Shown piece after piece: positions 8,552 to 48,512 of a stretch of DNA of 64,000 bases. The translations under genes were made by a program, and so were the position numbers. The notes beneath the pieces are model-generated. The model was not told the DNA's origin and did no database searches. It was given only the letters and a program-made list of their open reading frames with translations. This DNA comes from Trypanosoma brucei. Taxonomy: Eukaryota. Position 1 is the stretch's first letter. Every line of letters starts with the position of its first letter. The stretch covers positions 1,568,001-1,632,000 of the forward strand of contig CH464491.1 in NCBI GenBank assembly GCA_000002445.1, read 5' to 3'.

Positions 8552-8822
8552 ATATCGCTTTATTTTGTTGTTGCGGCGTAATCTAATTGCCCTTTGTGTA
8601 CACAACTGGAAGAAAATGGAACAGTGTATCGCCAAACTTACTCTTTCCTCATTATTTTATTTACATCTATTTCTGCCCAAGTGTGCGGGTACTTCATTTT
8701 CCATCAGAGGGTTGATGCCCCACCAACTGATTTTCCCCTTTATGATTCTGCTTTGATAACTGTACAAGGAGGAGGACGAAATTCAGACACGAAACAAGTG
8801 GTCTCAGCTTCATCGGTTGCTA

Positions 8823-9938
8823 ATGAACAAATCCGCAAAAAAGAAGGGTCTCTCCATGGAAGAAAAGGTGTCGCGTATTGAAACTTGGTTTGTTAACAAT
8901 CCGTCGCCTTACACGTTGAAAGATTTAATTCAAATTCTACCCAAGGCGACGGGCGTGATCCCACAGTCCGTGGAAGAGTGCATGGAAATCCTTGTCTCGG
9001 AAAATCGTGTGCGGCAGAAGAAAGTGGGTGTTCATGTTCTTTTTTGGCGTTTTCCCCAAACTGCTACCCAACGGTTGGCCGGCTCTATGGGAGAGAAAAC
9101 AACAACCACAGAATTAGCCAAATACCTTAGTATGTCAGAAGATGAGCTTCGGACGGAACTTCAAACTTTGAAGAAGACAGAGAAAGATATTCGTCAGCGG
9201 ATAAAAGAGACTCAGGCATCCATTGGGGATGACAACGCTGTTCAAAAGGATGCAGAGCAAATACGAAGTCTTCAGGGTGAAGTCAAGATACTGGAAGAGC
9301 AACTCAATCAACTTGCCCTGTTGGATCCAGCATTCGTTGAAAAACTGAAGGCCGCAACAGTGGTAGCGTGGGAATCTGCCAACCGCTGGACAGACAACAT
9401 GTACTTACTTGAGCAGCATATCTCACGGAAGATGGGGATGAGTGCACGGGAGCTGCGTGCTCAGCTGCAGCTTCCTCTAGAGGTGGAATACATTGAGTAT
9501 GATGAGCTTCTGCCGTCAGCAACGAGTGGGGGTAAATCAGCATGTACATCTTCAGGAAATTCTTGTGCGTCACCTCTAATCTGCACCGTCGATGCCACTC
9601 ACGGGGGAGGCAACAGTCAAGAAGTACCGGCAGCATTCCACATTGAGGAAGGCCACACCCAAAATATCAATGAGGAAGCGGGGGAAGCATTAACTGAAGG
9701 TGGATGTGATGTGAAACCTCATGAAGACGTTGAGAATGAAACCTCTAACACCTTAAGGAAGGAGAGGGATGGAAAGAAGCGTGGCAGGGGGAGACCTCCA
9801 CTGGAGAATGCTAAGAAAGATGACAATATGGTTAATGCTCCCTCAGTTAAAAAGAAAAAGAATGAAAAGGACAGACCACCTGCTGCGAGTAATACTGATG
9901 CACTCACGCCGGCCAGACAACGGCGTTGCCGAAGGTAA
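8823..9938 (+). CDS. MND1: Meiotic nuclear division protein 1 (Mnd1) homolog with a ~140 aa C-terminal extension containing an AT-hook-like motif
   Basis: Track start 8817 is TTG; first ATG is at 8823 (MNKSAKKKGLSMEEK). N-terminus KKKGLSMEEK...YTLKDL...GV..QSVEE..E.LV matches the Mnd1 winged-helix N-terminus (human MSKKKGLSAEEKRTRMMEIF..FQLKDLEKIAPKEKGIT). Central coiled coil. Conserved block AWESANRWTDNMYLL matches Mnd1 AKEAANRWTDNIFAI. The extension carries KKRGRGRPP (nt 9774-9800) and a KKKK basic patch. Confidence 0.75.
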   Translation: MNKSAKKKGLSMEEKVSRIETWFVNNPSPYTLKDLIQILPKATGVIPQSVEECMEILVSENRVRQKKVGVHVLFWRFPQTATQRLAGSMGEKTTTTELAKYLSMSEDELRTELQTLKKTEKDIRQRIKETQASIGDDNAVQKDAEQIRSLQGEVKILEEQLNQLALLDPAFVEKLKAATVVAWESANRWTDNMYLLEQHISRKMGMSARELRAQLQLPLEVEYIEYDELLPSATSGGKSACTSSGNSCASPLICTVDATHGGGNSQEVPAAFHIEEGHTQNINEEAGEALTEGGCDVKPHEDVENETSNTLRKERDGKKRGRGRPPLENAKKDDNMVNAPSVKKKKNEKDRPPAASNTDALTPARQRRCRR

Positions 9939-15866: not shown

Positions 15867-16593
15867 AAACAAAGCCACGTTATGTGAGCATGTTTGGAAA
15901 TATTTTTGTGCGCTATCGGTTAATTGGAGATATCACCTCTTAAGTAACATCACTTGTACCTTCTACCTTTGCTTCCCCCTTCTTTCCTTTCCCTCTCAGA
16001 CATGCAAAAACGTTATTTTTCACTTGTGGTGACGGAATAGAAAAAAAGAGTGAAGAAAACACAAGTAGCTTACTTCAGCAGTTCTGATTGAACAATCAGC
16101 TTCGAAATAACATTTGATGGGGACAGAAATAGAGAGAGATAAAAGGGCAAAGTGAGGTAATTGTAATGTGTTGCCCTCTACATTTTTGTATTGCTGCCGA
16201 AATTAATCTCCCTCTTCCCTGCAATCTGCTGGTAGCGTTGCCATAGTTACTGGTTTACAGTTTTAGTTATGGAAAAAAAATCCTTCGAGAGTTTTCTTGC
16301 ATTTCCTGGAGACCCCTTTCCTACCCGCTGTGTCATTGCTGGCAATATTGCCTTTTTGTTTTCTCCACACTCTTTGCTTCGCAATTATCATCGTATGACC
16401 ACTACTTGACCAAGTAACTCGTGGTGGTTTGGTTCGGTCCCCCTCCTCTCGTGCTACGAATTGCGACCCTCACCAAGACAAGGCAGAGAAGGGGAGAAGA
16501 GTGAAACTGCGATATAGGGCTAGGGGTAGTAACTCCTTCAGAAGGAAAAAAAAAGAGTTAAGACAAAGAAAAACGCGTAGCACTTCAGGAGAA

Positions 16594-19500
16594 ATGATGG
16601 GAGAGCAGGAGAACGTTCGTTTCCTTTCCCCCACTGGAATTGTGCCGTTCGCGGCGGACTCACCGCGGGGATCAGATGTGATTCGCCGCTCATTTTCTCT
16701 GCCCGCAGCAACCGTAACTTTCTCGCTTCGGCAACTCAATCGCGACAAGTGCGAAATTGCCACACCAGTAGCCGTCGAGAACTGTTTCCAAGTGTTGCAA
16801 CGGCACTTTGAACCCTATATCTCAGCTAGTGCGGTTTGCAACACTTGCCTCCCGGGTAGCAGGCTTTATTTGCGATTTAACAAACTTACAAATGCTACCT
16901 TTCATTCGGAGCCCTCCTTACTGAACGTATATGTTTACGCAGTAGATCAAGCAGAGTCACGGACCCGTGCACTTCATGGCGCGGTGCGTGAGTGGCAGAG
17001 TATGATGAAGACAAGTACGGAGGGGAGTTGTTTAGTTATGCTTTATCACCAGGATCTTGTTGATGCAACGTCAACAAGTGCCGTGCAAGCTGCGGTTTTC
17101 GGTGGCGAAATAAAAATGCCAGATCAACGCAAGGCAGAGGCAGCTGCCTCTGCCATGGGACCTTATTTTGATGAACTGGGAGCGATGAAGTTTGGACCAC
17201 AGCAAATGTGCTCTTATTTACCCAATGAGGCCCCTACCCGCATAATCGAGCGGTTAACTGCTGCGTACCGTAATCTCACAATACAACTGACTAATATCTT
17301 CAACGCTTCACAGCAGCGGAGACCCGCCTATACGCCTCGCGGAGACACAGGTTTGAATTCCCCTCCAAATGAAGCATGGAGCTTACAGAGGTGTTGGCGT
17401 GCCGGGTACGATTTGGCTGCGCATTATCTTCAATTTGGTGCTGTAAACAAGGCAATGGCCATATTTTCCCGGATGTTTGATGTGTACTACTATCATTCAG
17501 ACGATTACAATTTTTTGACGAAGAAAGAGTCAATTGAACAATTGATAAGATTAAGCGACATGTTTCATCCTGCATCTTTCCCGGTCCAGCAGGGTAGATA
17601 CCCCTCTGTTTTGCAAGATGCCGCAGAACCTGGCGCTGGCCTCCTTTTCATTGTAGTGTGTGAGATGAAGTGTGCCTTGCTGTTGGAGAGGCGCGATTTG
17701 GCCTTTGCTCGCTTTAATTCATTTTTACAGTTAGCGCGAGAGAAATTCGCTGAAGATGGTGAATCTACCAAGGTCACTAACTCCTTGCAAATTGTTTTCC
17801 TGCTTCGTTTTGCTATAACTGCGATGCAAACGAACTGGGCTCATAATGGGGCGTTGGATGACCATTCTGAAGCAAGATGTGATGGATCAGAAGCATCGTT
17901 AAGCGAACGCCAGCAGTCGCATGAGTCTTCGCAACGGAATCAACCGCACCCACAGCAGGCGCAATCGGTGACTGATATGAGCTCGCCTCTGAGAAGTGGT
18001 GATCAACCCCACGACTCTATTAGTGTGTCGGTGTTTTCCGGCAACAGCTCTATGTCGATGCCTTGGCCAGATGCCGAGGTGGAATTAGGCAAAGAGGTGA
18101 TTCACGAAACCGTTGATGTTGATCAGTCGCCAGACACCACCAAACGACTGAAAGAACTATGCAGAATGCTTAAACTAGAGTGGGTTGAAAAAAGCGTGGA
18201 AAGTGGTGGCGATAAGTTGTTCGTTCAGTTGGCAGATGAGGTATTGGAGCTAGTTTCTGATGCAGGTGCTCTTCTCGGCTATAGTGAAACCGGTGAAGTG
18301 GTGAAGGAAAGTGCAGTCGCAACATTTGGGGTTCCAGAGGTAGATTCCGTTGATGCCTTTGTTTCGTTTTACCGAGCGCTCACTGAAGCAGTAGCGCTCT
18401 ACTACCGCCTTCTCAACTATCGGCACCGCGAACACGCACTCCTTTACAAATTAGCATGTTCGTTTTCCGTAAAAGAACCCGAAAAAACAGTGAGGCTATG
18501 CCAGATTTGCCTCCTTCCATTTGTACAACAGTGTGGATGGCTCCAACTCCAGGTAATCATTCACCGCCTTTTGGTGGAGGCCATGGAACGTGTCATATGC
18601 CAACGCAAAGATCAGCAGCGGTTCGTACTTGAAGAAGATGTCACTTCAATGAAGGAGTCACTGTTGCGTCTCATCGCCGCGTGTGGAGAAAATGAACCGT
18701 TAAAACGGGAGATTGAGATGCTGGGGGGAAAAGGGTTGAATGCAGGGTCACTGTGGTGTCGCTTGCGGCGCTTCATGAGGGACGAGGGTTCGTTCCGTTT
18801 TTCACTTACAGAAGAAAATGGACCGAAGCAGGTATACGATGATGAAGGGGGTTCTGATGAGAATGCCGTTGGTTTATCGTGCTTCAAACTAACTGGTTTA
18901 TTAAAATACGCACAAGCCACTTGTCTGCGTAACAAGCCTATATTGGGTGATGCGAGTGAGTTTGGACTACTTGTCGCATCAAATGGTGGTGGCGACGACG
19001 GTAGTAGGGGATCATCTATTGGGCTGCAAGTTAACATTGGTGATACACTATATCTGTGCTTTGAGGCGCGTTGTCTGTTCAACATCCTTGAGTGTGATGA
19101 TGAGGAAGAGCAATCACAGGGACCCCATATGACTGAATCTCTCGTTCCCAGCGCTACGCTGGTGTCGAAGAAAGATTGGGACGATGATGATGAAACAATC
19201 CATATCGTGGACGTTGTGGACATTATATCCACTTACTATTCGGAACAGAACCAAAAAGTACAGTGGGTGTGGGAATTTAGGGCCTGTCACGCGGGTAATT
19301 ACCGTCTTCATGATATAACGTTCCAGGTAGGTGTGACAAAACTTGTGTACGAGCATAACGTAATTCCCCCTCTTCCTTCTGTAGAGATGTTTACCCCTAC
19401 CGAAACTACAGGCTCTCCCTTGAACAGCTTCCGTTGTGACTTCGATAAGGCGGAAACTGTGGCTTTGGGATGTCTTTTTACAGTTCCAGAACCGGATTTG

Positions 19501-21756
19501 GGTATTAAGATGCAATTGGCACCCGTAGGGGAGCCGCATTGCTTTGGCGATTCGCTAACCTTCTTTGACGTCCAAATTGATCTGGAGGAGCCATTGCTTT
19601 GTATGAGGAGCACACCCGCTTCAACTGTGGACACAGCAGGTATCGGGGGAGGAAAAGATAGTCACACAACCGTTAACTCAATTGGTGTCGTGGGAAATAC
19701 GTGTAGGTTTGAGTCCCTTAGTTTGCAAGTGCCTGCATCTCTCGGTGTAAGAACGTTGACAGATGGCGGAACTTGTACGATGTTGTCATTGGATTGTCGC
19801 TCTACGCTAAATGACACGGCAACGTCTACAACGATGTCTGTGCAACATGACTCGTCGACACTGGCCTGCCTCTTCCTGACGCGGCCGAAGAATTGTCCAC
19901 CCTTGCGACTGTCAAATCAATGCACCTCTGTTTTACAGGGTTTGACCCGTAGTGGAAGGGGTAACTCTGCGCCGCTCGTGAATGACGTGATCGCGTGGCT
20001 TGTGGAAGGTGATGGGCAGAGGGACAGTTCGCTCCTTATTGTCCGTGTCAAGCACATCACTGGTGCTTTTACCACTGTTCCCATTAACGAGAGTTTTGTC
20101 ATGTCACAACTCCCACCCGTTGTCACACGTGACGGAGAGAACAGTACCGATGGTGAGACCACAAAAAAAATTGATAGGATTGCGCAAGATGTACTTCCTG
20201 TACACTTGGATGGTAGCATTTGGCCACACCGAAAGCAGCAAAGTTGCTTCCGTATTTGTCTAGATGACCATGATGAGGAAAAAATTGACATGCAAAAGCA
20301 AAGTAAAGCAGTGGGGGACAGTAACAAAAGTGGTGAGGGGCTGCCGATACAAACCAACCAGCTGCGCTTGTCGCTACCTTTGCTTCCCTTATATACGACA
20401 CTGTCCGAAGAACGTGCGCATCTGTCCATCTGTCGCGAGGGTCATATGGACCCCAGTGGCGGCGACAACCGTGTCAGCGTTCCCATTCCCTACAAAATGA
20501 CAGCAGCTTTCGCTGTGCAATACTCTTTCAAGTGCCATCAAGGTCGCGTTTACTGTCTTGTGCGAGCGAAAAATGTGATGAAGGGAACATCGCTTTGGCT
20601 TCGCGGCGCGCTACTTGAGTTAGTGGATGGGGATCGGTATTATGAACTGTCCCGCGTGTCGTCTGCTCTGGATCACTTGATGTTACGTGAGTGGAAGCCG
20701 GAGGAGTCGGTTCACTTGTTCTTCGAACTTGCACCTTCGTCCAATGCGCCACCGCAGGTGGATGAGAGACGCCACAGTGTAAGGGTGCAGTTAATTTATT
20801 CCAATTGGTCTGTAACGGAGAGGCTGAAACCCATGGAAGAGTATATCCTACGACCAATCCGATCTTCTGGCACCAAATTACCTTCCCCTATGGCGGAAAC
20901 TGCCCATTTTTCCGGTGTGATGAAGAGCAGTAGCAACTGGATGGAGCACACTAACGATACTCCACTGAGTCCCGCTTCGACAGAAACTCTGGAAGCGGAG
21001 ATAGGAGATGAACCGGAGGTAAATGCGGAGGTGGTGCGGGTTCAGTACGATATTTCTCATTTAGAAAAGTTGTACAGTTCGTGTAACACATTTAACGGTC
21101 CTCTGGCGAGTTTTACATCCAAGCATTCATGCCTCTTCAACGTTGATATTACCGCACAACCTCTCACGTGGAGTTCGGCGGGCCCAAACAAGACACCCAA
21201 GTCGATTTCTCTGGAGGCAAACAGATCCTCTCTCGGATGCACGATTGAGTTTACTGACGGGCCCGGCGCCAGGTATCTACCGGGTGATTGTGTTTTCCCC
21301 GTTGGTGAGCCCGTTCAATTCACCGTTACATTAGATCCTCTTGCACACAACTGGCCGGAGGACAGTGCGAGTGAAGAGGAGTTCATCGTCTGTCTAAAGG
21401 TTGACCCCGCATTTTGGTTTGCGGTTGGTAAACAAAGGTTGCGGTGCAGGCTGTCCATGATGGAGGAAACGGTTCTTCGCTTCACGGCGATACCTCTACC
21501 ACCGGGGGAAGAAGGCACGCACCGTGCAGTGTCGGTCGATTATCCCCTCCATCAATATCAAGTGATTGGAAATATCCGAAAGAAGGGCAGTGATGAGAGG
21601 GTTGAAGGCGAATTCAATGTTCCCACACCAACAGTTGAACTCCACTCGATACCGCGTCAAAGTGTAAGTGAAACCGACGGAGCGAAACAAGGGGAAAATG
21701 TGGCTATTGAAGTGGTTCAGTTCAGTGCGCTCATGCGAATACGACAACAACAATGA
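16594..21756 (+). CDS. Large hypothetical protein (~1720 aa from first ATG), no recognised domain
   Basis: Track ORF begins at TTG 16429 with a basic low-complexity leader; first in-frame ATG is at 16594 (MMGEQENVRF), downstream of pyrimidine-rich tracts at 16300-16400. Uninterrupted 5.1 kb ORF on the array strand, mixed composition, no motif I can assign. Confidence 0.55.
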   Translation: MMGEQENVRFLSPTGIVPFAADSPRGSDVIRRSFSLPAATVTFSLRQLNRDKCEIATPVAVENCFQVLQRHFEPYISASAVCNTCLPGSRLYLRFNKLTNATFHSEPSLLNVYVYAVDQAESRTRALHGAVREWQSMMKTSTEGSCLVMLYHQDLVDATSTSAVQAAVFGGEIKMPDQRKAEAAASAMGPYFDELGAMKFGPQQMCSYLPNEAPTRIIERLTAAYRNLTIQLTNIFNASQQRRPAYTPRGDTGLNSPPNEAWSLQRCWRAGYDLAAHYLQFGAVNKAMAIFSRMFDVYYYHSDDYNFLTKKESIEQLIRLSDMFHPASFPVQQGRYPSVLQDAAEPGAGLLFIVVCEMKCALLLERRDLAFARFNSFLQLAREKFAEDGESTKVTNSLQIVFLLRFAITAMQTNWAHNGALDDHSEARCDGSEASLSERQQSHESSQRNQPHPQQAQSVTDMSSPLRSGDQPHDSISVSVFSGNSSMSMPWPDAEVELGKEVIHETVDVDQSPDTTKRLKELCRMLKLEWVEKSVESGGDKLFVQLADEVLELVSDAGALLGYSETGEVVKESAVATFGVPEVDSVDAFVSFYRALTEAVALYYRLLNYRHREHALLYKLACSFSVKEPEKTVRLCQICLLPFVQQCGWLQLQVIIHRLLVEAMERVICQRKDQQRFVLEEDVTSMKESLLRLIAACGENEPLKREIEMLGGKGLNAGSLWCRLRRFMRDEGSFRFSLTEENGPKQVYDDEGGSDENAVGLSCFKLTGLLKYAQATCLRNKPILGDASEFGLLVASNGGGDDGSRGSSIGLQVNIGDTLYLCFEARCLFNILECDDEEEQSQGPHMTESLVPSATLVSKKDWDDDDETIHIVDVVDIISTYYSEQNQKVQWVWEFRACHAGNYRLHDITFQVGVTKLVYEHNVIPPLPSVEMFTPTETTGSPLNSFRCDFDKAETVALGCLFTVPEPDLGIKMQLAPVGEPHCFGDSLTFFDVQIDLEEPLLCMRSTPASTVDTAGIGGGKDSHTTVNSIGVVGNTCRFESLSLQVPASLGVRTLTDGGTCTMLSLDCRSTLNDTATSTTMSVQHDSSTLACLFLTRPKNCPPLRLSNQCTSVLQGLTRSGRGNSAPLVNDVIAWLVEGDGQRDSSLLIVRVKHITGAFTTVPINESFVMSQLPPVVTRDGENSTDGETTKKIDRIAQDVLPVHLDGSIWPHRKQQSCFRICLDDHDEEKIDMQKQSKAVGDSNKSGEGLPIQTNQLRLSLPLLPLYTTLSEERAHLSICREGHMDPSGGDNRVSVPIPYKMTAAFAVQYSFKCHQGRVYCLVRAKNVMKGTSLWLRGALLELVDGDRYYELSRVSSALDHLMLREWKPEESVHLFFELAPSSNAPPQVDERRHSVRVQLIYSNWSVTERLKPMEEYILRPIRSSGTKLPSPMAETAHFSGVMKSSSNWMEHTNDTPLSPASTETLEAEIGDEPEVNAEVVRVQYDISHLEKLYSSCNTFNGPLASFTSKHSCLFNVDITAQPLTWSSAGPNKTPKSISLEANRSSLGCTIEFTDGPGARYLPGDCVFPVGEPVQFTVTLDPLAHNWPEDSASEEEFIVCLKVDPAFWFAVGKQRLRCRLSMMEETVLRFTAIPLPPGEEGTHRAVSVDYPLHQYQVIGNIRKKGSDERVEGEFNVPTPTVELHSIPRQSVSETDGAKQGENVAIEVVQFSALMRIRQQQ

Positions 21757-22180
21757 ATGGACATACGGTATGAGTGGGATCGGTGCTGAAGAAATAGTTA
21801 ACGTGGGCGATATTTCGAACGTGGTGCTGTTGCGTAAGAAGCGGTTGTAATGGCTACTGAGACTCACTAACCATAAAACGCTAAGCTTTGCTTTTTTTTT
21901 TGCCCTATTTTGTCGTTACATCGGTGTGATGCTCTAAAAAGAAAAAGAGGATTGCAGCTGCCTAATACTGGTGATGGGCATATACTCACATGTCGTTTTC
22001 ACACATGTCATCTTTGATATACCTCACTGTTCTTTCGTTTTCCTACTTCCTTTACCGCCAAAACTACTGCTGAGTGTACTGTTAATGCCTCTTTTCGTTA
22101 TTCCTAGTGGCTCCCCTCCCGTCTCGTTTATACCATTTACAAAATGTTTGCAGTCGCAGAGTTCTGCACTTAAACAAAAA

Positions 22181-22196
22181 TATATATATATATATA
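22181..22196. repeat. (TA)8 microsatellite
   Basis: tatatatatatatata in the intergenic region upstream of the J-protein gene. Confidence 0.9.
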
Positions 22197-22347
22197 GTTT
22201 GGTGGGAATACGTGCTTTTCCCTTTGCCTTTACATACTCTTTACATTTAGTGGGTTTGATCATTGTATTCACAACCGTGTGTTGTCTGTTGTCGTCATCC
22301 ACAAGAAAAAAATATTGCTAATATCGGTACAACTTAGGGTACTGGTA

Positions 22348-23619
22348 ATGTTTTTTGTGACGTCAATAGTTCGCATGACAGTTCATGCACCCCGAGGTAT
22401 CCCGTTTCAAATAACCACGGGGGACGCTGTCAAATCTGTACAAAAAAAATACCACAAGCCTTTTTTTGGCGTCAGCATGGAATACTTGCAGTTAGGGCCA
22501 CCTTCAGCAGAGTTTCTCCCCTTTTACTTCTGTGAAGGAAGTATAAAAGGTACCTTTCGTGGTGTTGTGAGCTACAGAGACGCAGAAGGCGGTGCTAAAA
22601 ACAATGCAGGAATATCCGGTAATAGTGGAATGAGACAGGTAGTAACGGCGCCACAGCCCTTACAAAGTTCCTTTGGTCCGCACCAAACACAGATTTATGC
22701 CGGGTATAAATATAATTTACATTATGTTCAGGGTGTTTTGTGTAGTGAAACAAATCCTCTGCAGCTCCGTAACATGTCTTCTGTGAATGTAGAAGGAGCT
22801 ACTATAAATCTTTTTGAGCAGTCCACCCGAACGCTCAGGGTTTTTGTAGAACAAGAGGTGCGGAGGCAGGCGACAGAAACCGCATGCGCCATGATTAGTT
22901 CATATCATCCCAGTGCTTCAAACATTGTTGTAGAATTTATTGAGTTAAACATACATATCGACGACGTAATACCAGTTTTCATGCCGTGTTATGTGGTGAA
23001 GGCTTGTTATGACCAACAAGAGTATACGTTGTACGTTAACGGTGCCAGCGGACAAGTGACCGGACCTTTTTTAATAAACTCACTTTACGCAGGCCGTACG
23101 GCTGCAGTAGCCACAGCTCTTGTTACGTTGTGTCTAGCACCTAATAAGGGGGCGGGCTTCATTATGGGCTCTTTATTTGCTGTTCCCATGTATTACATCG
23201 CCTTCTACGCGGCGAGGTACTTTCCATTGTTGCGGCGTGACTACTCACGTAAACGACGGCAGAAACTGCGCGAGAAACATGAGAGTGACGACCGCAGTGG
23301 CTTTCGACCGGATATGAGTTCGAAACGTATCGATGAAGAATACAGTCGTTCATCTTACTGGGACACGCACGCTTATGAACAAAAATGGAGTCGAAAACAG
23401 GGGACTGTGAGAGATCCCCGCGGCTATTACGGGGCTCTTGGACTTAACGGAGGTGAATCGGTAAACGAAATCCGCTCAGCATACCGCAAGATTGTGCTCA
23501 CTGAACACCCAGACACCGGGGGTTCCACGGAGCGTATGACGAAAGTAAATGAGGCTTACCGTGTGTTACGTGACCCTAAAAAGCGGGAGGAGTACGATAG
23601 ATCAGGGTGCTACACATAA
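22348..23619 (+). CDS. Membrane-anchored J-domain protein (C-terminal DnaJ domain with HPDTGGS signature)
   Basis: Track start 22279 is GTG; first ATG 22348 (MFFVTSIVRMTVHAPRG), alternative ATG 22375. Hydrophobic segment(s) around aa 270-315 of the track protein (AAVATALVTLCLAPNKGAGFIMGSLFAVPMYYIAFYAARYF). C-terminal ~60 aa J domain at nt 23419-23601: YYGALGLNGGESVNEIRSAYRKIVLTEHPDTGGSTERMTKVNEAYRVLRDPKKREEYD with an HPD tripeptide. Confidence 0.7.
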   Translation: MFFVTSIVRMTVHAPRGIPFQITTGDAVKSVQKKYHKPFFGVSMEYLQLGPPSAEFLPFYFCEGSIKGTFRGVVSYRDAEGGAKNNAGISGNSGMRQVVTAPQPLQSSFGPHQTQIYAGYKYNLHYVQGVLCSETNPLQLRNMSSVNVEGATINLFEQSTRTLRVFVEQEVRRQATETACAMISSYHPSASNIVVEFIELNIHIDDVIPVFMPCYVVKACYDQQEYTLYVNGASGQVTGPFLINSLYAGRTAAVATALVTLCLAPNKGAGFIMGSLFAVPMYYIAFYAARYFPLLRRDYSRKRRQKLREKHESDDRSGFRPDMSSKRIDEEYSRSSYWDTHAYEQKWSRKQGTVRDPRGYYGALGLNGGESVNEIRSAYRKIVLTEHPDTGGSTERMTKVNEAYRVLRDPKKREEYDRSGCYT

Positions 23620-24411: not shown

Positions 24412-25866
24412 ATGATGAATCGTAACGAGAACTCTGGCTGCAAGGCACTTTGGTCGAACACGCGCTTGGAGTGGTGTTATTGGTGTCATCTAATTCGGAG
24501 TTCCAAATGCAGCTTTGCCCTCTTTTTCGCCGTACTATGTGTTCTGGCCATCATTGTGGGAAATACTATTTTACTTCTAGGTGTAAACTTTTGGTTGGAT
24601 TTAATGGTAAAGGAATCCACTGAGGGTTTCACTCCAATTGCTGTTCAGGTAATTGTTTGTTTATTTCTTGTTTTATGCTTTGGTGTCCTCATTATAGTTT
24701 ATATTGCGGTGTACGGTATAAAACCACTTGTGAGAGCGTTGTGTGACACAAACCGCGCGGGCAGCCCACTCTACCGCATGCTTCTCATATTTTCTTCCGG
24801 TGCGACAAATGGACTCTCGAGTGCTTTGGCCATTTATGCCATGACTTACACACCAGAATTTATGCAAGCCGTGCTTTTGAGTGTCATCCCCTTTTTTGCA
24901 CAGATTTGGACTTACGCATTAGTGCGGGAGGAGCGAGACAGGTGCTACTCGTCCATGACCCTCATTGGTTCGTTGGTGTTGTGCATAGCTGGTGTCCTTC
25001 TCGCATCTCTATCCTCCTTCTTTACCACTGACATGTCGACCAAAAAAGCCCCATGGGGTTGGGCTTTTGTGTACTTTTTGAGTTGTATTGTGTTTGGTTT
25101 GTGGTGCGTTGTGCAGAGGTTGTATTTTGACGCCATCATGATTAAAGGGACGAAACCTCAAGAAGGGGAACGTGAACCGCACCAACCACTGTCTCATCAG
25201 CACCCTGAAATTACAAACTCTGGTAGATATGAGGGCAGAGGTGGGCAGAGGTTGCCCGCTGAGGCCGCTGCCGCAGGAGTTGATGGGGTCACTCAGTCGA
25301 ACGAAGTCGAAGAGGTGGCATCGTCAGAAAATGCTGAGAATCCAATGCTGAACCGTGAGTGGGCGAAGCAGGACGAAAATGATTTAGCTGCCAAGGCGCT
25401 TGTTCTGTTCCTTGGGATCATTTTTCAGGCAATGGTTTCTTTTGCATTTGTCCCAATAGACGCCATTCCAGGGTTTGGTAACTCCAAGGATATGAAAGAA
25501 TCGTGGAAAAACTTCAGTGCTACCTTCGACTTCGTATTCGCCTCATGGTTTAATCTGCGATTTGGCTTACTTCATACCCTTGGGTTTCTAATGAGTTTTA
25601 TTGGTTGTGCATACCTAAATGAGAGATCTCCTCCGCTGGCCTCTGTTGTTCTCCAGTTGGCCGGCCCAATCACAAGTCTTGTGCTTATTATTATACCCGA
25701 ATGGGATGTATTTGGAGAGCATGGCATTTTGAGCCATAAGGCAAGTGGCGTGATTTTCTTAATTATCGCAGGTTGGGCGTACCATGTCTGGGAGGTTGCA
25801 TACCCAAATGCTTACAAAAGTGCTACGACAACAGCAGCAGTGATGCGAGGCACGGGAAATGTCTAA
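24412..25866 (+). CDS. Polytopic integral membrane protein (putative transporter, family not assigned)
   Basis: ATG at 24412, T-run and AG just upstream at 24340-24355. About 10-12 predicted hydrophobic helices (e.g. FALFFAVLCVLAIIVGNTILLLGV, VIVCLFLVLCFGVLIIVYIAVYGI, LVLFLGIIFQAMVSFAFVPIDAI). A ~80 aa acidic hydrophilic loop sits in the middle (EGEREPHQ...ENPMLNREWAKQDENDL). Confidence 0.6.
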   Translation: MMNRNENSGCKALWSNTRLEWCYWCHLIRSSKCSFALFFAVLCVLAIIVGNTILLLGVNFWLDLMVKESTEGFTPIAVQVIVCLFLVLCFGVLIIVYIAVYGIKPLVRALCDTNRAGSPLYRMLLIFSSGATNGLSSALAIYAMTYTPEFMQAVLLSVIPFFAQIWTYALVREERDRCYSSMTLIGSLVLCIAGVLLASLSSFFTTDMSTKKAPWGWAFVYFLSCIVFGLWCVVQRLYFDAIMIKGTKPQEGEREPHQPLSHQHPEITNSGRYEGRGGQRLPAEAAAAGVDGVTQSNEVEEVASSENAENPMLNREWAKQDENDLAAKALVLFLGIIFQAMVSFAFVPIDAIPGFGNSKDMKESWKNFSATFDFVFASWFNLRFGLLHTLGFLMSFIGCAYLNERSPPLASVVLQLAGPITSLVLIIIPEWDVFGEHGILSHKASGVIFLIIAGWAYHVWEVAYPNAYKSATTTAAVMRGTGNV

Positions 25867-41855: not shown

Positions 41856-44800
41856 ATGTTTGAGAGTCTGTACGAACTCTTTTCGACGTCTCCAGGTAGA
41901 ACACCCTCCAATGTAGTTTGCAACAATGAGATGCCACCAGCGTTAATTGTGGTCATGCTTAAAGCTGATGAGCAGCGGTCACACACTTCACAGTCGGAGG
42001 GAGAGGGACGGAGGTTGTTGAACGGTTTGATGGCCGCCTACCCATCGTCCAATTACATGTTTGTTATCGATGCTGCAGAAAGTACTTCGGAGGTGTTTGC
42101 AGCGGTAACTGGAGAGTACAACTTGCTTCGTGAACTTTCTCCAAAATTCTGCTACGTGGTGTTTGCGGCACTTCGGGACCCCGAAGTGGTTGTTCCTTGC
42201 ACCAGCGTGTTTAACCCGGCGTGGGTCGGTGAGTTGCGTCGGATGTTGGATGGTTTACGTAACCCTCGTCACATGGTGGCAGAGTTACTGCTGCGTAAGG
42301 AATTGTGCATGCAGTTGGAGGGGCTTCTTCGGTTTACGGCGGAATGTCGATGGATAGGCGATGAATCGCTTTCTGCAAAACTTTCACGCCTGGTGGATTC
42401 CCGTGTCACTGATTTGAGCAGTAGTAAGAATTACTCCATGCCTTCCTGCGGAGGGCTGCAGGTTAGCTGTATTTCCATGCTCAAGGAAGATGAAGAAGCG
42501 GGTTCCCCTCCGCTAGTCCTCCAAACCGGGATTCGCATACGAGGCGTTGTACCCGACTTAACTAGGTCGTTAAGACTGTCAGACTGCAATGAACAAGAAT
42601 ATAGTCCCCCACTACTGCTCGTCGTTCTGCACGCAGGGGAATCTATTAGGGAAAATATCGTGGATGGCAGCGTTGGGCGGGATTCGTCGGTGCAGGAATT
42701 GGATTGCTTGTTACAGCAGTTAAGTTCTAGTGATGAAGTTTTTGTGTCGCTTGGTGGCTATGTGGTCGTTCCCCTATGCTCTGCCGCCGCGGCGAGGAAG
42801 CAGTGGCTCGATACAAAAGAGGTTCTGACAAGAAGGGTAACGTATGATGGTGCTGACTCCCATGCTCTAATTCGGGAAATGTTGACTCAGGCACTTCTCC
42901 CTTTGAGGAAATGGCACAGAAAGCATCACACTCCTGCGGAAGATGAAAAATCAAGTTCCCCAAGGAGCAGGGTAGCAATATTGTTTTACACACCTCAAGA
43001 ACCGTGTTCTGTGCACCAGTGTGTGCATTCGATTGTTCGTGAACAACTCGCTTTCCTTCAGGTGCCACTATTTTGTATCACAACTCCGGTTGGCGTTGAT
43101 ACCGCTTACAAACTACTAGATATCAGCAGTACGAGTGGTGAGCGTTGTATTTGCACCCTTGAAGCAAGTTGCACCGCCAATGTCAACCACGATAGCGAGT
43201 GTGGTGGTAAGGGTCAAGCGTGTTACGGGGTGCTGGGATCATCCACAGGTGAGCGAGTCGCCCAGGCGGCACTAACAGCAATTCGTAGCGTCACTCACCT
43301 TGGTGTTTCTGTCACCGTGCATTCTATCGACAACTCAAAAGAAGACACACGCTTCGAAGTTGGTGACCTACGCCAGGGTTTGGACACCACGGTGCTTATC
43401 TCTCGACCGGTGCAGAACCCGGATCGGGGGGCGTCTGCGAAGCACCAACTTACAATATTAGCTTATTCTGTTGATAAGAGCAGGTATGACATTGTACGTT
43501 TCATGCCTTCAGAAACTGTGAAAGAGGTGCCTTCCTCTGAGCACTCATGGTGGAGCCAGCTTCAAATTGCCGGGAGGTTGCTGAAATCCATGCCTTCCAA
43601 AGCACCCCCAAGTGTCTCACAGCTTGGAAACACTTTGATGCAACATTCTGAGGAGGTGCCATCTCTTGGGGGACTGGCCGAACAACAGCACAAGCTGGTC
43701 GAGTGGCTTCTCTCCAACTACGGTACACAAGAACTGGAGGGCACACCTTATACATTGGTGATTGGATGGTGCCCGTCCCCTTATATGGGCAACGGAAGCA
43801 CCGAAGAGGAGGACGGGTGGCCAACTAGTAGTGGGTACCTTTCAGCGTCTCCATGCATAGCGGACCCTTTGGTAGAGCTTCGGTGGACAAACTTTCCCTT
43901 CTGCGACGGCGCGCCGGTAACGACAATATCAGCGATCATAAGTCGAACGTTTCCCTTTGAGGCACTTGTGGAGAGTACTGCTTCCAACTCGCTCGCGCTT
44001 GAAACGCTGAGAAACGACTCTGCCGAAATCCGTCTCGCGTCCATGAAACACATCCCTGAACTGAGGGAGGCGCGGGCGCGCATCGTTGCATTTCTTAGCG
44101 TGGATACGTCGACTGGTGCCATGTCGCTACAACAGCTTGTGCCAGCGAAGACGGAAGACGATGTCAAAGGTGGTATGTTGCACACCTTTAGGTCACTTCG
44201 GTTACATCAAATGTACTGTGTGGTGCACCTCGCACTGCGATGTTCGCTTGACTCGTCGTTCTTCATGCAAAATGATGTTATCATTGCAGATGGTATTACA
44301 TTTATAACCCCAAGAGCAAGCGTACACGATGTAAGAGTTACTACCGTAACTCACTGCAGGGCAGATGTGGAGTGGAAGGGGACAGCAACATCTGTGAGAA
44401 TAGAATGTAAACCCATGAAATGGATCTCAACTCAAAAAAATAGTGAGCGGTCACCCGGCGGAATATCCGATGTAACAGATAGTGAAGTGGTTGGAGCAGA
44501 CGGTGCCACCACAATTGTAGAGTACTCTTGCGACGGGTTCCAAGCCGCGGTCGCGGGGCTACAACCCTTCACGCTATATCACCTGCGTGTGACGCCCATT
44601 GGGGATTCAACCCACGGTGCGATGATTAGGGAGAAACTGGAGGAAGGGGAAGCGTACTTTGCTACGTGTGTAGATGCAGGCGTCATCGATACCCTTAGCG
44701 TAGAATCCATCGTGCCAGATAGTGAGACACTGAAACTAACAGTTGCTCATCCCGTCCTTTGCAAAACAGCCGCCATTAGTCGCACACGCTCACTGGTACT

Positions 44801-47800
44801 CACAATAACTCCCACCATGTCAATGAGCAACTCTCTGGACAAAGAAAAGCCACTTCAAATGAGACGTAGGAAATTTTCTGAGGGCGAAAGCGTGGTGACA
44901 ACATTTACCTTACAGAAAGTGGAACGTGTACAAGTTTGCATTGAGTTCAACATGAAGTTGTGTTTCGGGCATGTTTACCTGGAAGAAACATCTAGTACCT
45001 GTAGTCACACGTGTGGTAGTGATGATAATGATGCGCAGTACATAGACGACAGTGGACAAGTGCGCGGCGTATGTGTGTGGTTTGCTAGGGGTGTGTCACC
45101 ATGGACAAAGGAGGTTGCGCTGTGTGGTAATAGCTCCCCCAGGTCGTTAAGTGCACCTCCCATGTGCTCATCGCCGACGCAACTTTTGGATGGCTACCGC
45201 ATCAGTCGTTCCGACACGCCGTTTGCTGAGATGCGTAGTGATTTCAAAGCTTCAAACGATCTTAAGGAACACTCCACAGAGGAGAATGTGGTGGTTACGG
45301 AAGGGAAGGAAGGATGTGGAGAAATGGAGTGGAGCGAGTCAAGTATTGTTTCAGTATCTCACGAAAAACGGTTATCAAAATATGTAGTGGATGACAGTGA
45401 CCCCAGCACCACCGGTGAAGCGACAAGGTCGTTGTATTGTGTCTTTTCGAAAGATCCCACATTCAGAGGAGTGCGTTTTTTAACGGACATGAGTTCTCAG
45501 GTGCTGTTAGCCAGTTTTGCTGTGGGTGGTAACAGTAGCGGATACATCTCGGCTGTGATCATGCCCCTAAATGTTTCAGTCGATAATCTTGACGGTGACA
45601 ACACCTCATTAAAAGTGAGTTACGCGCACGTTGATCGTGAGCGGCCGGTGACGGTAAAACTTGTTCAGCACCTCGAGCAACGGTACCAACGTGTCGGAAG
45701 AAAAACCATGCACTTATATGCTGTAACCGACGTTTGTTGCCGTAGCCGTGAGGAAGTGCTTGGGGTGAACGGTGTTAAAACTAAGAAAATGTTGCTTTCA
45801 TGGACCTGTGGCGCCCAACAGGAGGGGTCTTCTCTCTTCGTGCTTATAGGCAGCAAGAGATACAAACCGAAACCAAACAATACATTATTGATAGATTGCA
45901 ACGACACGCTCGTTGCAGCTCCTGTGTGCTTCTGTGGTTCTAACATCATCAAAGAAACATGTTCCATATACTTGGTTCCGCCACCTCCACCTTTATCGTC
46001 GCAATACTGCACAGTGAGGGCCGTAAAAGATGAAGCTTTGCATATTTTTATCACCGAGAAGTATTGCGTTCTATTGTATCGATGCCTTGCTTGTGTGAGT
46101 GATTTAATAATGGTGTTACTTCATGTGGGTGGTGACAACGCCACCGAACTTCCCTGTTCACAACAAAAATTGAGTGGTGGGGAAACGGGAGTACATCTGC
46201 AGGTACCGTTGGATGCAGTGGATCCGGAAAAAAACACAGTTGAGCTATGCGTCGAAGTTCGAGTTAGAAATTCTGCTTGTTGTATTGGGGACAACCCTTT
46301 AGTCTCGGATTGGAGGGATCGCACTGGTTTCGGCGGGAGTGGTAGCTCAAGTAGTTTGATCAGTACTAACATTTTGAAGGGGCGTCGTCAGCAACCTATT
46401 CTACTCATCCCGTGGAGCACCTCTGAATCTTTTGATGTACCTGTAGCATCCAGCACCTTGATCAAAAACCTTCAGGTGACCGAGCTCCACTCTACAAGAG
46501 CCAAATTATCGTGGACAACAGTTCCTTACAAGGAGACAGCGGACGAAAAACTTGGTGTGTTTTTGACGGTACAGTGTGCAGCGGCGGAGGGACATGTTAA
46601 GAAATACAAAGAATACGTCGTTTGCTCTGCACGATCTTTCCTTTTGCGCGGTCTCCTTCCTGCAACGCCATACCATGTCGAGTTGTCCCTGGACGGTGGA
46701 TGCCCACCCGGTCGTGTTGTATTTGTTACACCGCAGGATATGGAAGATAATGTGCTGCGCAAATTGATACCGTCAATTACGGCGGTGTGGGCATCACGAA
46801 GAGGAAGAAACTGGCAACACGTCATGAGGGCAGCTTGCGGGGGCACGGATGACGCGGAACAGCAGCGTTTCGTGCGTCTTCAATTGGATATTCCAAATGT
46901 GGAAAGCAAACACTGGACCGTATCCCCAAGTTCTGCACAAATTATAAAGGAGGAAATTAGCGGCTGTGGCACCTTGCGACTTGCAGTGACTGCCAAAGTC
47001 CAGGTACTACTTGTGGCCAAGTCGGGGAAGTTGCTGCAAATGTGGAGTACTGTAAGCGGGACCCAGAGCCAAACAGTGTCTTTTGCTTTTCCGATTTGTG
47101 GGGGAAATCCGGCTGCGAGTTGGCCTCATATTGAACTGAGAATGGACTCGTTTGCACAGTTTAGCCCAGCGGCAACGGAGGACGAAACAGGTGATGAAGT
47201 ATCCCCAAGCGTTGACCAAGACTCTTGGTCATTTAGTGAAAAAGACAAAATAAGTGACCTAAGAGCAGGCCACTTGGTTAGCCGGAAGCACCTCGGCGAT
47301 AGAACCAACTGTCCCTTTGCCAACAGCCATGTCACTGTGCACCTTGTTGGATGCCCTCAATTGATTAAGGTGGACGAAAACTGCTGTGTAGTTGAGTGGA
47401 GTGGTTCTTGTTCGGGTTACGCGATTCATTGGCGAGTTGGACCCTCGGGTGTCGTTAATACGGAACACATTGAGGCAGAGCGCAAACAAAAACCGAGCAT
47501 AACGGTTGATGTTTCAGCGTTGGATACGGTTGTGCTCCTTTTCTCTCTGCATGGGGCAGATTGTGCCTCCAACTGTGTACTCTTCGCTGTATTAGTCCCT
47601 CCAAAAGTCAGCAAGCAGATTGGCTGTTGTTGCGAAACGACACGAGGACTGTCCGTACCAACGTCACCTCGATGTTCCAACAAAGGATTGATAAAGGTGG
47701 ATTACACACGTGGGGGTCAACCCGGTTCTACCTTAACCGACGGTGAGTCTTTGGGACAGAACGGTGTAAGTGGTGTTAGCAGTGGACTTTGTTGCACTGC

Positions 47801-47948
47801 ATCCGTTGTTGATACCTCTAGTCTTGAGTGGCGGGAGGGCTTCAAGGGGTTGCTGAAGGATGAGGTTTGCTGCATGCTACTCCCGTTTCCTATGGAAGTC
47901 GTGTGGTTGAATCCTGTCGTGACAGCCTTCTACTCCCGTAGGACCTAA
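41856..47948 (+). CDS. Giant hypothetical protein (2030 aa), Cys-rich, no recognised domain
   Basis: ATG at 41856 (MFESLYELF). 6.1 kb uninterrupted ORF on the array strand. Many Cys residues scattered throughout, no transmembrane stretch noticed, no catalytic motif recognised. Antisense ORFs across it are short. Confidence 0.6.
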   Translation: MFESLYELFSTSPGRTPSNVVCNNEMPPALIVVMLKADEQRSHTSQSEGEGRRLLNGLMAAYPSSNYMFVIDAAESTSEVFAAVTGEYNLLRELSPKFCYVVFAALRDPEVVVPCTSVFNPAWVGELRRMLDGLRNPRHMVAELLLRKELCMQLEGLLRFTAECRWIGDESLSAKLSRLVDSRVTDLSSSKNYSMPSCGGLQVSCISMLKEDEEAGSPPLVLQTGIRIRGVVPDLTRSLRLSDCNEQEYSPPLLLVVLHAGESIRENIVDGSVGRDSSVQELDCLLQQLSSSDEVFVSLGGYVVVPLCSAAAARKQWLDTKEVLTRRVTYDGADSHALIREMLTQALLPLRKWHRKHHTPAEDEKSSSPRSRVAILFYTPQEPCSVHQCVHSIVREQLAFLQVPLFCITTPVGVDTAYKLLDISSTSGERCICTLEASCTANVNHDSECGGKGQACYGVLGSSTGERVAQAALTAIRSVTHLGVSVTVHSIDNSKEDTRFEVGDLRQGLDTTVLISRPVQNPDRGASAKHQLTILAYSVDKSRYDIVRFMPSETVKEVPSSEHSWWSQLQIAGRLLKSMPSKAPPSVSQLGNTLMQHSEEVPSLGGLAEQQHKLVEWLLSNYGTQELEGTPYTLVIGWCPSPYMGNGSTEEEDGWPTSSGYLSASPCIADPLVELRWTNFPFCDGAPVTTISAIISRTFPFEALVESTASNSLALETLRNDSAEIRLASMKHIPELREARARIVAFLSVDTSTGAMSLQQLVPAKTEDDVKGGMLHTFRSLRLHQMYCVVHLALRCSLDSSFFMQNDVIIADGITFITPRASVHDVRVTTVTHCRADVEWKGTATSVRIECKPMKWISTQKNSERSPGGISDVTDSEVVGADGATTIVEYSCDGFQAAVAGLQPFTLYHLRVTPIGDSTHGAMIREKLEEGEAYFATCVDAGVIDTLSVESIVPDSETLKLTVAHPVLCKTAAISRTRSLVLTITPTMSMSNSLDKEKPLQMRRRKFSEGESVVTTFTLQKVERVQVCIEFNMKLCFGHVYLEETSSTCSHTCGSDDNDAQYIDDSGQVRGVCVWFARGVSPWTKEVALCGNSSPRSLSAPPMCSSPTQLLDGYRISRSDTPFAEMRSDFKASNDLKEHSTEENVVVTEGKEGCGEMEWSESSIVSVSHEKRLSKYVVDDSDPSTTGEATRSLYCVFSKDPTFRGVRFLTDMSSQVLLASFAVGGNSSGYISAVIMPLNVSVDNLDGDNTSLKVSYAHVDRERPVTVKLVQHLEQRYQRVGRKTMHLYAVTDVCCRSREEVLGVNGVKTKKMLLSWTCGAQQEGSSLFVLIGSKRYKPKPNNTLLIDCNDTLVAAPVCFCGSNIIKETCSIYLVPPPPPLSSQYCTVRAVKDEALHIFITEKYCVLLYRCLACVSDLIMVLLHVGGDNATELPCSQQKLSGGETGVHLQVPLDAVDPEKNTVELCVEVRVRNSACCIGDNPLVSDWRDRTGFGGSGSSSSLISTNILKGRRQQPILLIPWSTSESFDVPVASSTLIKNLQVTELHSTRAKLSWTTVPYKETADEKLGVFLTVQCAAAEGHVKKYKEYVVCSARSFLLRGLLPATPYHVELSLDGGCPPGRVVFVTPQDMEDNVLRKLIPSITAVWASRRGRNWQHVMRAACGGTDDAEQQRFVRLQLDIPNVESKHWTVSPSSAQIIKEEISGCGTLRLAVTAKVQVLLVAKSGKLLQMWSTVSGTQSQTVSFAFPICGGNPAASWPHIELRMDSFAQFSPAATEDETGDEVSPSVDQDSWSFSEKDKISDLRAGHLVSRKHLGDRTNCPFANSHVTVHLVGCPQLIKVDENCCVVEWSGSCSGYAIHWRVGPSGVVNTEHIEAERKQKPSITVDVSALDTVVLLFSLHGADCASNCVLFAVLVPPKVSKQIGCCCETTRGLSVPTSPRCSNKGLIKVDYTRGGQPGSTLTDGESLGQNGVSGVSSGLCCTASVVDTSSLEWREGFKGLLKDEVCCMLLPFPMEVVWLNPVVTAFYSRRT

Positions 47949-48506: not shown

Positions 48507-48512
48507 TTGTGT

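Follow-up and report, generated by a model that had tools for sequence, protein, structure and literature searches.

What can be said of a membrane-anchored J protein when a recognizable domain is found only at its extreme C-terminus? The question arises at positions 22348 to 23619 of a 64,000-nucleotide stretch of Trypanosoma brucei DNA (contig CH464491.1, forward-strand positions 1,568,001 to 1,632,000; hereafter the window), where an open reading frame encodes a protein, TbJ29, whose J domain the original prediction had called Pam18/Tim14-flavoured. The presence of a J domain is in itself ordinary and the gene is annotated; what is gained here is that about 55% of the protein, formerly without assignment, is tied to a bacterial module. 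By profile comparison, the N-terminal domain is homologous to the core domain of Bacillus subtilis YdjG/SamG, an assignment that is new here. We propose, with somewhat more confidence than doubt, that TbJ29 is a mitochondrial J co-chaperone with a hairpin in the inner membrane, that its YdjG-like and J domains face the matrix and that it recruits mitochondrial Hsp70 (mtHsp70).

The gene lies in a plus-strand polycistron of T. brucei chromosome 11. The reading frame is real: it translates into 423 amino acids (aa), and the product matches, with 100% identity from end to end, the annotated protein of T. brucei TREU927 and T. equiperdum (P0001; XP_828646.1, EAN79534.1, UniProt Q385J7), named "chaperone protein DNAj, putative". 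The gene id, Tb927.11.5710, was first inferred from synteny (MND1, formin, J29) and then confirmed through the UniProt accession in published supplementary tables, which give the id and a mass of 47.743 kDa (PMC5436138). By Pfam, MND1 and a formin are among the neighbors within the window; the meiosis gene MND1 (Tb927.11.5670; PMC5015846) is at 8817–9938 (+), and the formin Tb927.11.5740 is orthologous to LmjF24.1110 (PMC7581878). Leishmania J29 (LmjF24.1080 / LINF_240016000), a type III protein of 435–436 aa with a C-terminal J domain (PMC4488524, PMC9141911), is located three genes upstream of the formin, and the same order is found in the T. brucei window. With the C-terminal J domain, the type III class and the formin synteny all shared, Tb927.11.5710 is the orthologue of J29, a gene already annotated and catalogued. 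Table 2 of the Leishmania catalogue lists no orthologue, location or function for J29, and its only features there are the J domain and one transmembrane (TM) segment (PMC9141911). A full-text literature search with Q385J7 gave no match, and Tb927.11.5710 was absent from the supplements searched of TrypTag and of a structure-based annotation paper. A reading frame shortened or lengthened by a frameshift, which the original prediction had kept in view, is rejected: no frameshift is evident, because collinear full-length orthologues of 406–463 aa exist in Trypanosoma, Leishmania, Phytomonas, Bodo saltans and deeper contigs. One of the full-length kinetoplastid orthologues (P0017, from a JGI metagenome) is named by its source "ribosome assembly protein YihI (activator of Der GTPase)"; this is a misannotation, probably triggered by the basic linker.

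Pfam and NCBIfam searches of the full protein recognized the J domain only, and aa 14–241 gave no Pfam match. AlphaFold2 (AF2) with the orthologue alignment confidently modeled the full-length protein with a predicted local distance difference test (pLDDT) of 82 and the N-terminal domain alone with a pLDDT of 87. When an alignment of the N-terminal domain from kinetoplastids only was compared with an alignment of the YdjG family, HHalign reported a probability of 98.65% (E = 5e-16) over 214 columns, placing positions 14–237 on YdjG residues 92–308. The layout agrees beyond the domain: the first TM segment (aa 246–264) directly follows the domain end at about aa 241, as it does in YdjG. TbJ29 has no N-terminal CxxC pair or zinc ribbon, its domain beginning at aa 14, and therefore the YdjG domain is shared and the full YdjG architecture is not. 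YdjG carries two N-terminal zinc ribbons, a single C-terminal TM segment and no J domain, whereas the trypanosome protein lacks the ribbons and has a second TM segment and a C-terminal J domain.

The bacterial relative has some experimental characterization. YdjG and YdjH are mutually interacting membrane proteins, and both are needed if the SPFH protein YdjI and PspA are to be recruited to the membrane (PMC8581546; bioRxiv 10.64898/2026.02.06.704340). The YdjG module anchors an SPFH protein and an ESCRT-III homologue, PspA, at the membrane. We fetched the operon from the B. subtilis group via a published ydjG primer and found the order pspA, ydjG (341 aa), ydjH, ydjI. The YdjG partners are encoded in this operon (samGHI in the alternative naming of ydjGHI), YdjH being a TPM-domain protein; for TbJ29, SPFH and TPM proteins are candidate partners only. 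A triad of directly adjoining Band_7_1 (SPFH), YdjG-like and TPM (TPM_phosphatase) genes, with the YdjG-like gene in the middle, was present in four of six sampled bacterial loci; this is the arrangement of the pspA-ydjGHI operon. Next to the triad, pspA was found in Bacillus (L010), and none was seen in the stretches sampled of four metagenomic or metagenome-assembled-genome loci; the triad may be the conserved unit and PspA an add-on. The passages searched of the comparative papers on the Psp system contain no mention of a eukaryotic YdjG homologue.

Apart from the close orthologues, an exhaustive hidden Markov model search with the N-terminal domain profile retrieved 160 proteins (E < 1e-3), and these fell into two classes. 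In the eukaryotic class, the N-terminal domain precedes one TM segment or two, after which come a linker and a J domain at the C-terminus; in the bacterial class, the domain stands between one zinc ribbon or two at the N-terminus and TM segment(s) at the C-terminus. On the bacterial relatives, Pfam recognized the zinc ribbons only, and no existing model covers the core domain. With a broader profile, more than 1100 proteins were found at E <= 1e-5, the best of them outside the kinetoplastid orthologues being of the bacterial type. The few bacterial-type relatives with names come from Clostridia, Oscillospiraceae and Lentisphaerota and are all called "hypothetical protein", and the named eukaryotic members belong to Salpingoeca kvevrii, Creolimax, Sphaeroforma, Basidiobolus, Neocallimastix, Gefionella and the green alga Myrmecia bisecta. 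Judged by sequence, the architecture of YdjG-like domain, TM hairpin and C-terminal J domain is present in kinetoplastids, a malawimonad (Gefionella), a choanoflagellate, ichthyosporeans, early fungi and a green alga. A full-length eukaryotic profile searched against named proteins added only Sphaeroforma among the matches listed, which were mostly generic J domains. What emerges is a widespread and overlooked eukaryotic family with a conserved domain order, not seen in standard models.

Mitochondrial residence of Tb927.11.5710 is established by published proteomics. The ImportOmics study (PMC5436138) defined the importome by a significant fall in abundance in purified mitochondria (log2 <= -0.62, p < 0.05) when ATOM40 was knocked down. 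Tb927.11.5710 belongs to it and is listed among the "New mitochondrial candidate proteins": ATOM40 RNA interference (RNAi) reduced it 0.434-fold (log2 -1.20, p = 0.0225) in gradient-purified mitochondria, a moderate change quantified in three of four replicates (PMC5436138 Suppl. Data 6). The corresponding values were 0.62-fold (p = 0.013) in organelle-enriched fractions and 0.82 (not significant) in whole cells, and SAM50 RNAi gave 0.95 (not significant) (PMC5436138 Suppl. Data 3–6). The protein is not in the ImportOmics reference set, which took in the proteomes published before for the outer and inner membranes, and of the constituents of the outer-membrane proteome only 38% are ATOM40-dependent (PMC5436138); an internal rather than an outer-membrane location is favored. 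Of the two organellar membranes originally suggested, the mitochondrial one has held and that of the endoplasmic reticulum (ER) has not. An ERdj-type protein of the ER membrane, the alternative offered for an anchored J protein, is scarcely credible and we reject it: the protein is ATOM40-dependent and detected in gradient-purified mitochondria (PMC5436138), hydropathy shows no strongly hydrophobic N-terminal stretch suggesting a signal peptide, and a lumenal J domain would require translocation of the 245-aa N-terminal domain without one.

The chain is predicted to cross the membrane twice. The hydrophobic hairpin and the basic juxtamembrane stretch (RRDYSRKRRQKLREKHE) read earlier from the sequence are both there, the former as two segments at aa 246–264 and 268–292 by hydropathy and AF2. 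The second AF2 helix, aa 267–317, runs beyond the second TM segment through the basic stretch. Across the family, 87 of the 102 eukaryotic members having both domains carry two hydrophobic segments between them, and in most of the 102 the second segment is followed by 20 residues of net positive charge (+7 in TbJ29). Two hydrophobic segments followed by a positive flank would therefore leave the two domains on the same side, which the positive-inside rule would make that of the matrix. In the bacterial proteins, the YdjG domain follows cytoplasmic zinc ribbons and would therefore itself lie on the side of the cytoplasm, which corresponds topologically to the matrix. An inner-membrane hairpin anchor with both soluble parts facing the matrix is most likely, because of the positive-inside rule, the ATOM40 dependence and the basic N-termini that lack acidic residues.

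Those N-termini begin, in orthologues, with MF/ML/MY-RR; their first 20 aa lack acidic residues and have a net charge of +2 to +5. In TbJ29, the first 13 residues (MFFVTSIVRMTVH) are a possible short mitochondrial presequence of trypanosomatid type, aa 1–7 having a pLDDT below 50 in the AF2 model, and many distant eukaryotic relatives have longer presequence-like N-terminal extensions. The start is at the position of Met 22348 (MF/ML/MI/MY) in 17 orthologues of the 21-sequence alignment; P0041 and P0049 have longer N-termini, P0025 and P0044 are apparently truncated there, and the T. theileri orthologue starts at the position of the second Met (22375). Upstream of 22348, there is no in-frame ATG within the mechanical open reading frame opening at GTG 22279. 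The residue numbers given originally (hairpin at about 270–315, about 380 aa before the J domain) carry an offset of +23, which fits a count from that GTG; the features themselves stand, and counted from ATG 22348 the hairpin is at 246–292 and the J domain starts at about 358.

A hairpin equally allows both domains to face the cytosol, and TbJ29 might be an outer-membrane protein recruiting cytosolic Hsp70 to the mitochondrial surface. Its J domain is most similar to cytosolic DNAJA/B types, presequence predictors find nothing in it and a part of the outer-membrane proteome does depend on ATOM40, all of which would suit this arrangement. We consider it unlikely, given that the protein is missing from a reference set that included the outer-membrane proteome (PMC5436138), that presequence-like basic N-termini recur in both orthologues and distant relatives, and that the homologous bacterial domain is on the side equivalent to the matrix.

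The J domain itself is canonical. The Pfam DnaJ model (PF00226) matches aa 360–417 with 57.5 bits against a cut-off of 27.8 (E = 1.5e-15), covering profile positions 2–63 of 63, and AF2 places the helices at 360–363, 372–386, 394–408 and 410–422. DnaJ was the sole Pfam match on the full protein, which has neither a G/F-rich region nor a CxxCxGxG zinc finger, and TbJ29 is a class C (type III) J-domain protein, the class given to its Leishmania orthologue (PMC9141911). The EHPDTGGS loop noted earlier is present, and H387, P388, D389, G391 and G392 are invariant in the 21 aligned orthologues, and the basic residues of helix II are conserved. These observations bear on the possibility that the J domain does not serve as an Hsp70 co-chaperone at all and that TbJ29 is a structural membrane adaptor, for which TbPam18 and TbPam16 set a precedent in T. 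brucei (PMC11349236). A recognizable HPD is missing in 7 of 53 members of the wider family, as such a role would allow; the HPD is invariant in 21 of 21 aligned orthologues, and the domain scores far above the Pfam threshold. We find the structural role distinctly improbable.

Pam18 is a small protein with a single N-terminal TM segment followed by a divergent J domain, and its partners are Pam16 and TIM23. Its loop reads HPDKGGS, but HPDKGG[DS] occurs also in unrelated J proteins, and J domains of the Pam18 type are not known to have the YYxxLG and LRDPxxRxxYD motifs. TbJ29 retains both, in helix I and helix IV, respectively, as in the classical DnaJ J domains aligned. Searched alone against all PDB sequences, its J domain matched DNAJA and DNAJB types over all 63 residues with 44–50 bits (up to 50.3), among them dnj-12, DNAJB8, DNAJB1, DNAJA1 and Sis1, whereas yeast Tim14/Pam18 (2guz_A) ranked about 50th with 25.8 bits over 35 residues only. 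By these comparisons, the domain is ordinary and DNAJA/B-like, not Pam18-like. The HPDTGGS loop and the short spacing from HPD to helix III do resemble the HPDKGGS type, yet HPDxGG is found in 50 of 53 euglenozoan-type members and in only 5 of 46 HPD-bearing members of the wider family, where the following residues vary (HPDRFQD, HPDKFKD, HPDVNRG and others); in the sequences compared, it is a clade-specific euglenozoan trait. The Pam18/Tim14 flavor originally proposed has not survived these data.

Nor does the remaining evidence favor a place for TbJ29 in the PAM, the protein-import motor that goes with the presequence translocase, although like Pam18 it is membrane-anchored and mitochondrial. 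Its 423 residues are laid out as a 245-aa domain, two hydrophobic segments, a linker of about 65 aa and the J domain, which is not the Pam18 layout. The trypanosome proteins with which comparison had been proposed are other genes: TbPam18 (Tb927.8.6310), TbPam16 (Tb927.9.13530), TbPam27 (Tb927.10.13830) and a Pam-like protein (Tb927.4.650), with TbPam27 carrying out the Pam18 function in T. brucei (PMC7064343). Tb927.11.5710 was not in the supplementary tables searched of the pulldown studies of TbPam27 and TIM (PMC7064343) and of TbPam16 and TbPam18 (PMC11349236), which report stable isotope labeling immunoprecipitations (SILAC-IP). Membership of the Pam18 type, very improbable on all these grounds, is rejected on the J-domain scores, the architecture and the four other PAM-type genes, which all but settles that TbJ29 is not a missing component of the PAM motor. 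It does share with Pam18/Tim14 (DNAJC19, DNAJC15) and TbPam27 the character of a membrane-anchored mitochondrial J protein, and like them it would set its J domain beside mtHsp70. TbPam27, of 27 kDa, is C-terminally anchored in the inner membrane and associates with the presequence translocase (PMC7064343); TbJ29 differs in its canonical J domain and its 245-aa YdjG-like domain, and an association with TIM was not seen in those supplements.

The proposal of a matrix-facing, inner-membrane recruiter of mtHsp70 draws directly on the intact HPD of the J domain, the homology of the N-terminal domain with YdjG, the conservation of the hairpin and the published ATOM40-dependent residence. Several points weigh against it, apart from the moderate size of the ATOM40 effect and the lack of a partner in the pulldown tables. 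The first TM segment is only moderately hydrophobic and has a conserved Arg, and the Leishmania catalogue annotates a single TM segment (PMC9141911); with one TM segment only, the membrane would separate the two domains. For Tb927.11.5710, neither TargetP nor MitoFates predicts a presequence (PMC5436138). The gene triad is lacking in two of the six bacterial loci, and the suggested link of TbJ29 to SPFH and TPM proteins is guilt by association from bacteria. The choice of inner over outer membrane, the matrix orientation, the mtHsp70 partner and the nature of the client are all inferred.

On this proposal, the starting point would have been a protein of the bacterial type, with its domain in the cytoplasm and a single TM segment; the gain of a second such segment would have brought the J domain that was added back to the side on which the first domain lies. 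A partner or client close to the membrane would be bound by the YdjG-like domain, whose Bacillus counterpart belongs to the anchor for a sub-membrane SPFH/PspA assembly. At that place, the J domain, carried by a basic and flexible linker of about 65 residues, would then stimulate ATP hydrolysis by mtHsp70, and Hsp70 would act locally. Any client of TbJ29 is speculative; if the bacterial operon is taken as a guide, the candidates are a TPM-domain protein and an SPFH-type scaffold, for example prohibitin or a stomatin-like protein. Human DNAJC19 reportedly associates with the prohibitin (SPFH) scaffold, as Richter-Dennerlein et al. are said to have described in 2014, which would parallel the bacterial link between YdjG and an SPFH protein. 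Escherichia coli DjlA, too, is membrane-anchored with a J domain at its extreme C-terminus, facing the cytoplasm, and tethers DnaK activity; it has a single N-terminal TM segment and an unrelated central domain, and similarity in sequence is confined to a weak NCBIfam DjlA match (E = 0.012) at aa 343–389, around the start of the J domain. T. brucei has at least 38 mitochondrial J proteins, which, it was suggested, may be needed to differentiate the function of its single mtHsp70 (PMC11349236). A "type III J protein of unknown function" would, in TbJ29, become a concrete hypothesis, testable in T. brucei: recruitment of mtHsp70 to a scaffold or stress site of the inner membrane.

The distribution of the family allows a wider proposal, tentative and doubtful as it stands: an ancient mitochondrial family, possibly dating to the last eukaryotic common ancestor, in which a YdjG/SamG domain was fused through an added second TM segment to a J domain and which links mtHsp70 to inner-membrane maintenance of the SPFH (prohibitin/stomatin-like) or ESCRT-III/PspA-like kind. 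The anaerobic gut fungus Neocallimastix, which has hydrogenosomes, keeps a member with the YdjG-like domain, a TM segment and a J domain (P0104 cluster), which argues against a role tied to respiration or to the organelle genome; were this proposal true, the family would serve the membrane or proteostasis as such. Among its few named members, none from animals, land plants or Dikarya was seen, which could explain why it went unnoticed.

The features of the gene are collected in the following table. The linker contains a conserved SSYWDTH motif.

Table 1. Features of the TbJ29 gene, in positions of the window
Feature	Position	Strand	Basis or remark
Complete coding sequence of Tb927.11.5710 (TbJ29)	22348..23619	+	423 aa plus stop codon, uninterrupted translation
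N-terminal 13 residues MFFVTSIVRMTVH	22348..22386	+	short, basic, no acidic residue
YdjG/SamG-like core domain (aa 14-241)	22387..23070	+	alpha+beta, long beta-hairpins, PepSY/YpeB-like C-terminal half
Hydrophobic segment 1 (aa 246-264)	23083..23139	+	hydropathy; AF2 helix 245-263
Hydrophobic segment 2 (aa 268-292)	23149..23223	+	hydropathy; completes helical hairpin, chain back to the side of the N-terminal domain
Basic juxtamembrane stretch RRDYSRKRRQKLREKHE (aa 296-312)	23233..23283	+	sequence; 20 aa after second TM segment with net charge +7
Linker, mostly low-confidence/disordered (aa 318-356)	23299..23415	+	pLDDT <50 for aa 321-351; length varies among orthologues
J domain, canonical four-helix type (aa 358-420)	23419..23607	+	Pfam DnaJ, PDB J-domain matches, AF2
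HPDTGGS loop (H387-S393)	23506..23526	+	sequence; orthologue alignment

Eukaryotic genes do not form operons, and by Pfam the neighbors of the TbJ29 gene in the window are unrelated to TPM or SPFH partners. Its 5' intergenic region at 22030–22200 (+) contains long polypyrimidine tracts such as precede the acceptor sites of trans-splicing; an (AT)n microsatellite lies there at about 22178–22197. Upstream, 16429–21756 (+) encodes at most 1775 aa (a mechanical reading frame from TTG) with no Pfam match; by gene order, this is Tb927.11.5700, "hypothetical protein, conserved", which is listed in Suppl. Data 2, where mitochondrial and non-mitochondrial reference sets are given together (PMC5436138). 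The next gene downstream, at 24412–25866 (+), has a product whose 484 aa include many hydrophobic segments and match nothing in Pfam at E <= 1e-4; it is an uncharacterized multi-pass membrane protein and by synteny probably Tb927.11.5720. Farther along, 41856–47948 (+) encodes a 2030-aa protein with only a borderline fibronectin type III match (25.3 bits against a cut-off of 25). The same polycistron includes, at 48507–52466 (+), the gene of an RNA polymerase of the single-subunit phage type (Pfam RNA_pol, 430.8 bits), presumably that of the mitochondrion.

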